From positions 352,001 to 416,000 of the forward strand of contig JBMNHS010000001.1 of assembly GCA_050950505.1 (NCBI GenBank): 64,000 nt of DNA, given 5' to 3'. Origin of the DNA: Candidatus Methanomethylophilaceae archaeon. Its GTDB lineage: Archaea > Thermoplasmatota > Thermoplasmata > Methanomassiliicoccales > Methanomethylophilaceae. Each line of letters opens with the position of its first letter. Position 1 is the stretch's first letter. Made by a program: the position numbers and the translations under genes. Shown here one piece after another: positions 30,351 to 36,280 of this stretch. The notes under the pieces were generated by a model. It ran no database searches, was not told the DNA's origin, and saw nothing but the letters and a program-made list of their open reading frames with translations.

Positions 30351-32918
30351 TTAATCTTCTTCCTGTTCCTCTTCCCACTGATGGGGAACGTCCTCATCCT
30401 CTTCCGGGACGGGGATTTCCGGAACCGGAACTTTCTCGGTTTCGGGAATGTGTTCGACGACGTCCATGATGTCGTCGTCTTCGACCACGGATTCCACGGC
30501 GGTGACTTTGTCCCCGTCATGAAGTTCCATGATTTTCACTCCCTGGGTATTGCGGCTGGTCTGACGTATGCTTTCCACCGCGATTCTGAGAATTTTCCCT
30601 TCGACGCTGTTGAGCATCAGTTCTTCGCCCACGGCAACCTTTCTCACGGAAACCACACCGCCGTTCCTTTCGGTGGTGCGGATGGTTATGACTCCTTTTC
30701 CGCCTCTCTTGGTGAGACGGTATTCGTCCACCGACGTCACTTTTCCGAATCCGTTTTCAGTCACGGTCAGAAGAGTGTCTTCGGGTTTCACCACGGCCAT
30801 GGACACGGCGACGTCGCCTTTGTTGAGGGTGATTCCCTTCACGCCCATGGTATCCCTTCCGGAAGGACGCACGTCATCCTGGTTGAATCTGACCGCCAGA
30901 CCGTTGCGGGAGGCGATGATTATTTCGTCGCCTTCGGTGCATATGTCGGTCTCGATCAATTTTCTTCCGGGCAGAAGTTTGATGGCTTTTATGCCCACTC
31001 TGCGCACGTTTCCGTAAGCGCTCAGCCTTGTTTTCTTGACTATGCCGTCATCGGTGCAGAACACCAGGTACTTGTCGTCGGAGAATTCGGACACGCAGAT
31101 GGTGTTGACTATCGTTTCCCCCTCGTCCAAATCCTCAATCAGGTTCACGATGGGTTTGCCTCTGGAATGTCTGCTTCCCTCGGGAATTCTGTATCCCTTG
31201 AGCCAGTGGAGACGTCCCTGATCCGAAATGAACATGACGTAATCGTGGGAAGAGGAGATGAACATGTTGGAAACATGATCTTCGTCCTTGGTCTGCATTC
31301 CCATGAGACCCACGCCTCCGCGTCCCTGCTGTCTGTACGTGGACAGGGGTATGCGTTTGATGTAGTTGTCTTTGGTGATGGTTATCACAACATCCTCTTT
31401 GGGAATCAAATCCTCTTCATCGGTATCGATGTCGAAAGGACTTATTTCCGTGCGGCGCTCATCCCCGAACTCGTCGCGCAGCTGGGTCAGTTCATCCTTG
31501 ATGATTTGGAGAATGCGGGGTTCGTGGGCAAGAATGTCTTTCAGATCCGTCATGGTTTTGATCAGTTCGTCGTACTCCTCGCGGAGCGTCTCGATTTCCA
31601 GGCCGGTAAGCCTCTGAAGACGCATGTCCAGAATCGCCTTTGCCTGTTCCTGATCGATTTCCAGCAGTTCCTGAAGCCCTTCGTTGGCTTCCTCGCCGCT
31701 GGCGGAGGCGCGGATGAGCGCCAGGGTCTCGTCCAATCTTCCCAAAGCTTTGATCAGACCGTTCACGATGTGGAATCTCTTCTCGGCCACCCTGAGATCG
31801 TATTCGGTTCTGCGCCTTACCACTTCGTTCCGGTGTTCGGTGTAGTGGAAAATCATGTCCCGAAGGGTCAGGAGGGTGGGTTTATTGTTCACCAGAGCCA
31901 GATTGATTATCCCGAAGGTGGTCTGCAAATCCGTCCTCTTGAACAGATTTTCGAGAACCACGTTAACTATGGCGTCCCGGTGAAGTTCGATGACTATGCG
32001 CATGCCGTCCCGGTCCGACTCGTCGCGCAGATCCGTGATGCCTTCGATATCTTTGTTTCTGACACGGTCGGCGATGCGTTCGATAAGAACGGCTTTGTTG
32101 ACCTGATACGGCAACTCGTCGACGACGATGCGGGATTTCCCGTTTTCCATCTCTTCTATGTGAGTTTTGGCCCTGACTCTGAGCCGTCCCCTTCCGGTTC
32201 TGTAGGCTTCCCTTATTCCGGACAGGCCGTGAATCACACCGCCGGTGGGGAAGTCGGGGCCGGTGACGATTTCGTTGAGATCGTCGTTGGTGGCTTCCGG
32301 GTTGTCTATGAAGTAAATGATTGCGTTACATACTTCCGTGAGATTGTGGGGGGCCATCTTTGTGGCCATTCCCACTGCGATTCCGTCGGAACCGTTGACC
32401 AGAAGGTTGGGGAACTTCGACGGCAGAACCGAGGGCTCTTTCAAAGAACCGTCATAGTTGTCGACGAAATCCACGGTTTCCTTATCGATGTCCGCAAGCA
32501 TGTCCGCGGAGAGTTTGGCGAGTTTCGCTTCGGTGTAACGCATCGCGGCGGCGGGATCCCCGTCCATGGAACCGAAGTTTCCCTGACCGTCCACCAAAGG
32601 ATATCTCAGTGAGAAGTCCTGTGCCATCCTTACCATCGAATCATAAGCGGAGGTGTCTCCGTGAGGATGGTATTTGGCCAACACTTCACCCACCACTTTG
32701 GCGGATTTGCTGTATGAACGGTTGTGGTGCATGCCCATGTCGTGCATGGCGTAGAGTATCTTGCGGTGAACGGGTTTGAATCCGTCACGGGCGTCGGGAA
32801 GGGCACGTCCGACGATGACGCTCATCGAATAATCGATGTAGGAGCGTTTCATCTCTTTTTCAATCGTCTGGTTCAATATTTTTCCGTCTGCCGTTTCTTC
32901 AATGTAATTCTCAGTCAT
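30351..32918 (-). CDS. gyrA: DNA gyrase subunit A
   Basis: YHPHGD, catalytic AAAMRYTE, GyrA-box QGRGGVG, pinwheel repeats and an acidic tail; start MTENY at 32918. Confidence 0.97.
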
Positions 32919-32922
32919 GTTA

Positions 32923-34839
<1,917 letters not shown>

Positions 34840-34883
34840 TCATCTGATTCCGATGCTCACTATGCTTCCCTATGCATCACCCC

Positions 34884-34918
34884 TATATATACACGCGTGT
34901 AGCGCGCACGCGCGCGCG
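34884..34918. promoter_or_regulatory. TATA box contiguous with an alternating purine-pyrimidine tract in the gyrB/thiC divergent intergenic region
   Basis: TATATATACACGCGTGTA-GCGCGCACGCGCGCGCG read directly from the sequence. Confidence 0.6.
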
Positions 34919-34987
34919 AGAAAACCCATTTTTCCGGCGTCGGGAACAGTAAAATAAAGATAGACGGATTTGCGGGACGGGTATTCT

Positions 34988-36280
34988 ATGAGCACCATAA
35001 TGGAACAGGCGCGCAGAGGCGGTTGCAAAGAGCTCGTGCGCAAAATTGCCGAAAAGGAAAGGGTCAGTGAAGAGTTCGTCCGAAACGGGATAGCATCGGG
35101 ACGCATCGTCGTTCCCCTCAATCCCGTGCACAATCCGGAACCCTGCGCCATCGGAGAAGGCCTCAGCGTCAAGGTCAACGTGAATCTGGGCACTTCGAGG
35201 GACATCGCCGACATCGATGCAGAATTGGAAAAGTTGGAAGTTTCCCTGAAATACGGTGCCGATTCCGTTATGGATCTCAGCACCGGCGGGGACATAGACA
35301 CCATCAGAACCCGTTTGCTGAAAGAATGCCCCGTGATCATGGGTTCCGTGCCCATCTATCAGACCGGTCTCACGGCGGCGAGAAACAACGCCGTCGTGGA
35401 CATGAGCGAGGACGATATTTTCAACGGAATCGAAAAACACGCGAAAGACGGAATGGACTTCATGACCGTTCACTGCGGCATTACCAAAGAGTCCGTGAAA
35501 TGGCTTAAACGGGCCGACAGACTGATGGACGTGGTTTCCAGAGGCGGTTCCTTCCTTACCGCTTGGATTCTCCACAACGAAGAAGAGAACCCGCTTTACA
35601 GGAATTACGATTATCTTTTGGAAATGGCCCGGAAGCATGAATTCACCCTTTCCCTGGGCGACGGGTTCAGACCCGGCTGCATTTCGGATGCCACCGACCA
35701 GGCTCAGATATCAGAACTTATGACACTGGGTCATCTTGTAAAAAGGGCAAGGGAAGCCGGCGTTCAATCCATGGTGGAGGGACCGGGACACGTTCCCCTC
35801 GGACAGGTTCCCATGAACGTCGAACTTGAAAAACGACTGTGCGACGGCGCTCCGTTTTATGTCCTGGGGCCTTTGGTCACGGACATTGCGCCGGGATACG
35901 ACCATCTGGTGGGAGCGATCGGCGGAGCCGTCGCCGCCCAGGCGGGAGCAGATTTCCTTTGTTATCTTACCCCGGCGGAACATCTGTCCCTTCCCGACGC
36001 CGATGACGTGCGGGAAGGAGTGATCGCGTCAAAGATTGCGGCGCATATCGGAGATCTCGCAAGAGGAAAAGACCGTGAAATGGACGATGCCATGGCAAAG
36101 GCCCGCAAGAGATTGGATTGGGACACCATGTTCGAAGTCTGCTTGGATCCCGACAAGGCCCGGGAATATCGGGCAAGAGGGTGCACAGAGCACGAAGACG
36201 GCTGTTCGATGTGCGGGGATGTCTGCGCGGTCAAGATTGTCAACAAATATCTGACCAAAAACACCGACCTAATCAAATGA
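34988..36280 (+). CDS. thiC: ThiC-family radical SAM enzyme (phosphomethylpyrimidine synthase; BzaF-type paralog not excluded)
   Basis: KVNVNLGTS, MDLSTGG, VSRGGS, EGPGH, PAEHL and CSMCG..C motifs. Confidence 0.85.
   Translation: MSTIMEQARRGGCKELVRKIAEKERVSEEFVRNGIASGRIVVPLNPVHNPEPCAIGEGLSVKVNVNLGTSRDIADIDAELEKLEVSLKYGADSVMDLSTGGDIDTIRTRLLKECPVIMGSVPIYQTGLTAARNNAVVDMSEDDIFNGIEKHAKDGMDFMTVHCGITKESVKWLKRADRLMDVVSRGGSFLTAWILHNEEENPLYRNYDYLLEMARKHEFTLSLGDGFRPGCISDATDQAQISELMTLGHLVKRAREAGVQSMVEGPGHVPLGQVPMNVELEKRLCDGAPFYVLGPLVTDIAPGYDHLVGAIGGAVAAQAGADFLCYLTPAEHLSLPDADDVREGVIASKIAAHIGDLARGKDREMDDAMAKARKRLDWDTMFEVCLDPDKAREYRARGCTEHEDGCSMCGDVCAVKIVNKYLTKNTDLIK

Follow-up and report, generated by a model that had tools for sequence, protein, structure and literature searches.

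The gyrase locus and its alternating tract

The DNA analyzed here is a stretch of 64,000 nucleotides (nt), hereafter the window, from a Candidatus Methanomethylophilaceae archaeon, a gut-type methanogen (assembly GCA_050950505.1, contig JBMNHS010000001.1, positions 352,001 to 416,000 of the forward strand), and the element under study is a tract of alternating purines and pyrimidines (RY) at the promoter of the DNA gyrase genes gyrBA. The gyrB coding sequence (32923–34827, minus strand, 634 amino acids (aa)) matched the Pfam families DNA_gyraseB (1e-53), DNA_gyraseB_C, Toprim and HATPase_c, and that of gyrA (30351–32987, minus strand, 878 aa) matched DNA_topoisoIV (8.6e-164) and DNA_gyraseA_C; since gyrA overlaps the 3' end of gyrB, the two genes probably form one operon. 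Across an intergenic region of 160 nt (34828–34987) lies thiC (34988–36280, plus strand, 430 aa; Pfam ThiC_Rad_SAM, 1.2e-191), divergent from gyrB. The Pfam matches agree with the gene names given in an earlier reading of the window made from its letters alone (referred to below as the original prediction), and the horizontal acquisition of the gyrase proposed there is in line with the horizontal origin that is stated for archaeal gyrase in PMC8643681.

The tract spans 35 nt (34884–34918) and is made of two RY-alternating blocks with a single A-G break. Block 1 (TATATATACACGCGTGTA, 34884–34901) is 18 nt long and fully alternating, comprises the TATA box together with CACGCGTGTA, and spans the position expected of a transcription factor B recognition element (BRE, 34892–34898). 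Block 2 (GCGCGCACGCGCGCGCG, 34902–34918) is 17 nt long, also fully alternating and CG-rich, with seven CpG steps, and is out of phase with block 1 by one A-G step at 34901/34902. The putative gyrBA TATA box, TATATATA (34884–34891, minus strand), is a palindromic octamer in phase with block 1, at a distance of 57 nt from the first base of the gyrB start codon (34827), while TACACGCGTGTA (34890–34901) forms a perfect 12-nt palindrome. Sequence and coordinates of the 18-nt and 17-nt blocks, their AG break and the distance of about 57 nt between TATA box and start codon were thus confirmed as first described. Placed between divergent promoters, the tract as a whole occupies the BRE position and the 27 bp on the upstream side of the gyrB TATA box. 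The original prediction had further placed the CG-rich part at the BRE, and this held only for the tract in general: it does cover the BRE position, but the 7 bp there (34892–34898) fall within the mixed CA/TG/CG block 1, and the CG block that is most Z-prone lies past this position, 11–27 bp upstream of the TATA box. In sequence terms, an alternating CG-rich tract at the gyrase TATA box makes a strong candidate for a DNA-shape sensor of gyrase autocontrol.

Rarity and Z-forming propensity in the genome

The genome (designated G000, with other genomes given as G-numbers and the loci of relatives as L-numbers) measures 1.33 Mb and is 99.6% complete. The gyrB site is its sole window of 35 nt in which 33 or more of the 34 steps alternate, where 2e-4 such windows would be expected. 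Single RY runs of this size are not rare on their own, chance expectations being 5.5 at 17 nt and 2.5 at 18 nt; ten runs of at least 17 nt were counted genome-wide, two of which adjoin at the gyrB site, and block 1 is the only 18-nt RY run in the genome. Such tracts are therefore not common in this genome, contrary to what the original prediction had named as grounds for abandoning it. Within the window, a search for eight successive YR steps returned three overlapping matches, all at the gyrB tract, compared with a mean of 0.17 in 100 dinucleotide-preserving shuffles, in agreement with the earlier remark that the window is otherwise without a comparable tract. Two perfect RY runs of 25 nt each (C1:480539-480563 and C1:60643-60667), one AT-rich and the other CA-rich, are the longest in the genome; the CA-rich run is intergenic and lies 64 nt before a gene.

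The propensity to adopt Z-DNA was estimated with a custom scan in the style of Z-Hunt, in which dinucleotide B-Z energies, a cost of 10 kcal/mol for two junctions, a Z-Z junction term and the release of twist together yield a critical superhelical density (sigma). The 16-bp core of block 2 ranked first of 18,767 scored segments in G000, with a critical sigma of about −0.034 in this two-state model, so that the ranking suggested in the original prediction as a check put the gyrB site at number one in the genome. Just four segments in all of G000 had a critical sigma of 0.040 or less in magnitude. Hand arithmetic for a 5-kb domain gave a critical sigma of about −0.038 for the gyrB tract.

Distribution of the tract among relatives

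A total of 89 gyrB upstream regions were compared, comprising 29 usable loci (one more was lost to a contig end) and 60 regions picked to cover every genus. The sample was chosen rather than random, about 55 further genomes of the family with a gyrB match lying outside it, and the relatives are not independent, the loci L007–L009 being identical in the gyrB upstream region. A CG-rich RY tract at an A/T octamer, or a few bases from it, was found in 70 of the 89 regions, with the octamer 28–75 nt before the gyrB start (about 28 nt before the ATG in genus g24). The comparison of upstream regions proposed in the original prediction, in which absence of the tract from relatives would have counted against it, thus found the tract widely present despite drift of the sequence. 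The 70 carriers are all of the sampled genomes of 13 GTDB genera of Methanomethylophilaceae, and the 19 non-carriers are all of the sampled genomes of four other genera of that family and of six other families.

The two groups were well separated in Z propensity, with critical sigma values in the two-state model of 0.032–0.045 in magnitude for the carriers (median 0.036; 0.040 or below in 63 of 70) and of at least 0.050 for the non-carriers (none at or below 0.040, n=19). Among the carriers the longest perfect RY run measured 10–48 nt, with 65 of the 70 reaching 14 nt or more and 41 reaching 20 nt or more, compared with 5–12 nt in the 19 non-carriers. This grouping is independent of the tract itself, being defined by the GTDB genera and by a GyrB tree of 29 loci, in which the carriers fall on one side of a 100/100 branch, so that a single origin suffices. 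In 20 of 21 relatives examined over 4.9-kb loci, the tract was also the top Z site.

The divergent gyrB-thiC pair is conserved in 28 of 30 loci from seven families of the order, with an intergenic sequence that has been rebuilt between clades. In genus g6, thiC was not found beside gyrB in four of five regions and the tract was still there, and in L022 another divergent gene stands in the place of thiC; the tract follows gyrB, not thiC. One alternative to a feedback sensor gives the tract a passive torsional or physical role between the divergent promoters, as a stiff G+C block, a supercoil buffer or insulator, or an excluder of nucleoid proteins. Such a role would suit a tract placed between the gyrB TATA box (34884–34891) and the TATA-like box of thiC (34950–34963), and a divergent neighbor of gyrB that is kept in 28 of 30 loci and even in L022, where it is a different gene. 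However, a barrier to melting requires G+C and not the strict alternation that is kept, the other divergent gene pairs of G000 are without such a tract, and the tract always hugs the gyrB TATA box whereas its distance to the promoter of the neighbor varies. A passive element is accordingly considered quite unlikely.

Among the non-carriers (L024–L030, L033, L057–L060, L084–L090), most share a different block at this place, an A/T box of the form TAGTAT(T/A)AATA followed by C(A/T)TCTGG and in many cases by a second A/T box, L085–L087 and L089 fitting less well. The alternating tract apparently replaced this older, sequence-conserved promoter module, as judged from the upstream regions compared. 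A CCCATCC motif, possibly the sign of a short upstream reading frame, is also present in several non-carriers some 100 nt ahead of the aligned gyrB start.

Long RY tracts of other kinds were seen in two genomes from other families. In G030 (L182–L187), a 27-nt RY tract is contained in a block of about 190 nt that occurs at no fewer than six dispersed loci. An A/T box stands about 70 nt downstream of the tract, which is followed by A/T-rich DNA that has no long open reading frames (ORFs). Rfam gave no match in eight extra loci including this repeat block, and no CRISPR-like repeats were found in L183, the one locus checked. In G033 (L189), a 71-nt perfect CG/TG tract (C1:278716-278786) and a 28-nt tract are found at a contig end.

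Retention of alternation rather than of letters

Tract length among the carriers ranges from 14 to 60 nt including breaks, and the distance to the TATA box and the mix of CG, CA, TG and TA steps vary as well. For example, L002, whose GyrB is 97% identical to that of G000, has a perfect run of 34 nt where G000 has its break, L044 has a perfect run of 48 nt composed of TG, CA, CG and TA steps, and the hexamer CGCGCG is absent from some tracts (L016, L019, L079). Because length, TATA distance and composition are all variable, the tract is a poor fit to a fixed protein site. On comparison of these promoters, it is CG-rich alternation and not a particular sequence that is retained at gyrB across a large clade of Methanomethylophilaceae.

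Substitutions were examined in 25 disjoint within-genus pairs, in which 19% of the columns had changed in the tract and 20.6% in the flanks. The kind of change differed, with transitions and transversions in a ratio of 89:54 in the tract vs 431:541 in the flanks (odds ratio 2.07, Fisher p=7e-5). As transversions break alternation, the excess of transitions is a pattern that preserves it, and the tract is apparently under selection for alternation. The same data bear on a neutral origin, by which the tract would be a slippage-prone compound dinucleotide microsatellite that arose once and persists by mutational bias. The three ACACGCG(CG)T units in L045 do suggest slippage or duplication, length is very variable, and one origin suffices on the GyrB tree. 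A neutral repeat would nevertheless have had to persist in every one of the 70 genomes sampled from 13 genera, with no loss and down to a GyrB identity of about 65%, always anchored at the TATA box, with transversions under-represented relative to the flanks and in genomes that are otherwise poor in such runs, and this explanation is regarded as highly improbable.

Dyad symmetry was assessed by comparing the hairpin energy of each tract with that of 200 alternation-preserving shuffles, the TATA part being shuffled in, which biases the test towards symmetry. No symmetry beyond that given by alternation was detected at the G000 site (z=−0.29). The mean z of the carriers was −1.0, and 50 of the 70 were without excess. 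Extrusion of a cruciform instead of Z-DNA under negative supercoiling would be favored by the self-complementarity of (CG)n, by the 12-nt palindrome at 34890–34901 and by the arrangement, in several relatives, of two CG blocks around a 2–4-nt spacer. The lack of dyad excess in G000 and in those 50 carriers speaks against it, as does the finding that the longest tracts (L044, L045, L056, L069) make no better hairpins than their RY-preserving shuffles. Z-DNA is moreover described as relaxing more per bp, and at lower stress, than competing transitions (PMC10783518), so that little likelihood is left to a cruciform.

Recognition of the CG-rich alternating DNA in its B-form by a protein, be it a repressor, an activator or a specialized TFB with an unusual BRE, is unlikely on balance but has several observations in its favor. 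The BRE and the DNA directly upstream of the TATA box are where archaeal regulators and TFB bind, and 20 of the 70 tracts exceed their RY-preserving shuffles in dyad symmetry, as illustrated by L004, where a 3-nt spacer separates the arms of a 9-nt inverted repeat, and by L005, with arms of 8 nt. The distal boundary often reads G|AG(A/G), a C(G/A)CGCG core follows the TATA box in many genomes of genus g1, and the sequence-conserved block of the non-carriers, at the same place, resembles a protein site. Against a protein site stand the wide variation in length (14–60 nt), register and composition, including the tracts that lack CGCGCG and the 48-nt mixed run of L044, and the missing symmetry excess at the G000 site and in most of genus g24 despite a test biased towards finding it. 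The turnover of the tract also equals that of its flanks, and with no comparable site at other G000 promoters such a protein would serve a one-gene regulon.

Specificity for the gyrase promoter

Upstream of gyrB in bacteria and other archaea, RY runs of at least 14 nt were found in only 2 of 78 regions. L131 (Haloarculaceae) has a shorter, CG-rich alternating run of 12 nt, CGCGCGCGTGCG, 60 nt before its gyrB match, which may be a chance occurrence in a G+C-rich genome. Within G000, no tract was seen by eye in the 150 nt that precede topA or in those that precede a putative top6B, which lies directly upstream of a TP6A_N match. Type II topoisomerases are reported to prefer alternating purine-pyrimidine repeats, and the tract could in principle be a preferred binding or cleavage site of gyrase or of another enzyme of this type, giving direct autoregulation. 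Its presence at the gyrase promoter alone among the three topoisomerase loci examined would fit, but gyrase sites involve about 130 bp of wrapped DNA and only 14–60 bp are conserved in character here, which makes such a site very unlikely.

The promoters of G000 were also compared at the BRE. Positions −8 to −3 contained approximately 40% A in 81 TATA-anchored upstream regions, whereas the corresponding stretch at gyrB, CACGCGTG (plus strand), is alternating, and six of eight bases at the BRE position are G or C. By these TATA-anchored counts, the purine- and A-rich BRE typical of G000 promoters was not found at gyrB. The counts replaced a de novo search for a promoter motif by expectation maximization, which yielded a weak motif only.

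Short CG-rich RY runs, defined by a length of 10 nt or more and by three or more CpG, are intergenic in 16 of 48 cases, compared with 9% of the genome, an enrichment of three to four times; none of these intergenic runs approaches the gyrB tract. Runs of 10–12 nt beside or near TATA-like boxes were seen at C1:663421, 816066, 797904, 801004 and 353878 (window position 1878), the last of which lies by a large unannotated ORF. The genes next to such short runs include rpl44e, an Rpb7-like gene, an FAD oxidase gene, znuA and proC. A regulon of genes marked by CG-rich RY runs was considered and rejected, as the neighboring genes have no common theme.

Other promoter and leader elements

Read on the gyrB strand, the intergenic elements follow one another in the order CG block, mixed block, TATA box, 9-nt spacer, CATAGGG, short palindrome, GAGGAG, 8–9-nt spacer and ATG. 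The conserved proximal element CATAGGG (34868–34874, minus strand) lies 9 nt downstream of the TATA box; this motif or its variants CATAGCC, CATACC and CTTAGTG occur at equal distance in many carrier genera (judged by eye and uncounted), and CATTAGG takes its position in L025, from another family. It falls after the TATA box and ahead of the expected start, and may aid promoter opening or bind a factor.

The putative 5' leader of gyrB (34836–34856, minus strand) consists of a short hairpin or palindrome (34841–34856) and then GAGGAG (34836–34841), a Shine-Dalgarno-like motif 8–9 nt before the ATG. Covariation of the hairpin in 13 sequences from genera g1 and g7 was weak, with four predicted pairs of which two showed double changes (for example, CG 5 vs UA 5), and RNAalifold found no structure in 20 mixed leader sequences. 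The palindrome could be a hairpin at the 5' end of the mRNA or an operator near the start site.

On the opposite strand, the putative TATA region of thiC, TAAAATAAAGATAG (34950–34963, plus strand), precedes the thiC start codon by about 25 nt, and a motif GAAC(A/G)(G/C)T(A/G)AAATAA(A/C)G(A/T)A is kept at a constant distance from thiC within the genus. An A/T box that is conserved with thiC and placed about 25 nt before its ATG suggests that thiC probably has its own leaderless or near-leaderless promoter. Assembled RNA contigs mapped on 34300–35500 leave 34833–35037 uncovered and are uninformative on transcription here. A search of 34600–35200 against Rfam gave no family match at E values up to 10, so that neither a thiamine pyrophosphate (TPP) riboswitch nor another known RNA accounts for the tract.

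A supercoil-driven B-Z switch as the favored interpretation

Taken together, the position, rarity, Z propensity and conserved alternation of the tract are best accommodated by a selected, supercoil-responsive non-B element, most likely a B-Z switch at the BRE and upstream promoter that would feed back on gyrase, a reading to which a probability of roughly 45% is given. Gyrase is the source of negative supercoils, and its activity, possibly together with divergent transcription of thiC, would push the local sigma beyond about −0.034 to −0.04, at which point the tract would flip to Z-DNA. A B-Z junction at or beside the BRE and TATA box would then block the assembly of TFB and TBP, and the flip would in addition absorb several superhelical turns that otherwise aid promoter opening, so that gyrBA transcription would fall once the tract is in Z-form. 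Relaxation of the DNA would return the tract to B-form and let the promoter fire. The outcome would be a homeostatic control of gyrase that is stimulated by relaxation and independent of a dedicated protein.

The energetics of such a switch are described in PMC10783518, which gives B-Z energies per dimer of 0.7 and 1.3 kcal/mol for CG and CA, respectively, and a nucleation energy of 10 kcal/mol. According to the same source, alternating CG and CA/TG sequences flip to Z-DNA under negative superhelicity earlier than they melt or extrude cruciforms, each dimer in transition relaxes over one third of a turn, and genomic Z-susceptible sites seldom exceed 6–7 dimers. No match to the histone fold (PF00808) was found in G000, at 99.6% completeness, while control archaea matched; the chromatin of this organism is presumably not histone-based and, given the missing histone-fold gene, fewer of its supercoils may be constrained.

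A protein partner of the Z-alpha type (PF02295) was looked for as well, and the one candidate was rejected. This ORF, a winged-helix protein of 58 aa (C1:966486-966659 of G000, minus strand; locus L181:1465-1641), is patchy and unrelated in its distribution to the tract: it was present in 8 of 41 relatives, among them members of a family that lacks the tract. Its score of 23.4 bits lies just above the Pfam cut-off of 21. When aligned with ZBP1, the ORF has D and K in its helix at the positions of the ZBP1 contact residues N and Y, and its best solved relative is PscE of the green-sulfur-bacterial reaction centre (7ueb_E, 4.4e-13).

Several observations weigh against a B-Z switch. Z-prone motifs are reported in PMC10783518 to be depleted, not enriched, in prokaryotic 5' flanks, and in G000 the phase break leaves a best single block of 16–17 bp. 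The energies used in the scan follow Z-Hunt, and only those for CG, CA and nucleation were matched to values in PMC10783518; the critical sigma is the value of a simple two-state model that is not tied to the unconstrained sigma of the host in vivo. The excess of transitions is small among the closest pairs, alignments of simple sequence are uncertain, and the relatives compared in this test are not independent. The dyad excess (z < −1.64) in 20 of the 70 carriers could mean protein contact, as could the distal end of the tract, where G is often followed by AG (27 of 70) or AA (14 of 70). Finally, the short CG-rich runs elsewhere in G000 adjoin unrelated genes, so that a milder and more general effect of promoter context is possible.

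Relation to known supercoiling-sensitive systems

On the features of its sequence, the gyrB tract appears to belong with those supercoiling-sensitive promoters that use non-B DNA. The closest parallel is the bop promoter of Halobacterium, which Yang, Kim, Molinari and DasSarma reportedly found in 1996 to be affected by supercoiling and by a non-B-DNA structure, and which is said to carry an alternating purine-pyrimidine "RY box" of about 11 bp at its TATA box. Both cases concern an archaeal promoter in a gyrase-bearing lineage, with alternating DNA at the TATA box and a proposed non-B sensitivity to supercoiling. Unlike bop, which is not a topology gene and has a short tract, the element described here measures 35 bp, and as much as 48 or more in relatives, is found at the promoter of gyrase itself and recurs in 13 genera; a feedback loop is proposed for it, whereas none is implied for bop. 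In the 1996 work, supercoiling is said to stimulate the bop promoter. Later papers state that novobiocin induces bop (PMC9348778, PMC8643681).

The proposed outcome, more gyrase when DNA is relaxed and hence homeostasis of supercoiling, resembles the induction of gyrase in bacteria and haloarchaea. Transcription of bacterial gyrA and gyrB is stimulated by relaxation, as Menzel and Gellert are said to have reported in 1983. The determinants of this response in E. coli are reported to lie in the −10 and start region of a sigma-70 promoter and are not known to involve Z-DNA, in contrast to the switch proposed for the gyrB tract, which is predicted from sequence. Haloarchaeal gyrase is induced by novobiocin, by a mechanism that is not given in the portions of the three reports consulted (PMC3184054, PMC9348778, PMC8643681).

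A further comparison is with plasmid inserts of (CG)n and (CA/TG)n, whose B-Z transition has, according to PMC10783518, been detected in living E. coli too. The gyrB tracts belong to the same sequence class with the same energetics, and the predicted transition lies at a sigma of −0.03 to −0.04 for tracts of 16–46 bp. Unlike those engineered inserts, however, the gyrB tract is natural and chromosomal, holds a defined position in a promoter and is under apparent selection. In a search of the literature, no paper was found that connects Z-DNA to relaxation-stimulated transcription or Methanomassiliicoccales to a gyrase promoter, and the papers listed for Z-DNA together with gyrase, gyrB, archaea or the TATA box included nothing relevant.

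Implications for supercoiling control in gyrase-bearing archaea

The tract is real, apparently selected and unusual. The interpretation in the original prediction is supported in part, its computational predictions having held, and the mechanism put forward is a candidate. How archaeal gyrase works and is regulated is described as poorly understood (PMC9348778, PMC8643681), and the gyrB tract bears on the control of supercoiling in gyrase-bearing archaea. The promoter concerned drives the sole enzyme that makes negative supercoils, and it carries a tract of at least 17 dimers, compared with the usual 6–7 at genomic Z-susceptible sites, at this one promoter in 13 genera. Natural functional Z-DNA in prokaryotes is nearly undocumented. 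With the tract, the long-standing idea that DNA structure is what senses supercoiling in its homeostasis may become open to direct tests, for which relatives with tracts of 14–48 nt, sister genera without the tract and cultured members of the family provide natural controls. More tentatively, and with the balance of likelihood leaning somewhat against it, the whole clade of gyrase-bearing archaea that carries the tract may set its supercoiling by a protein-free B-Z flip, which would have taken the place of the older promoter module in a single event at the clade's base.

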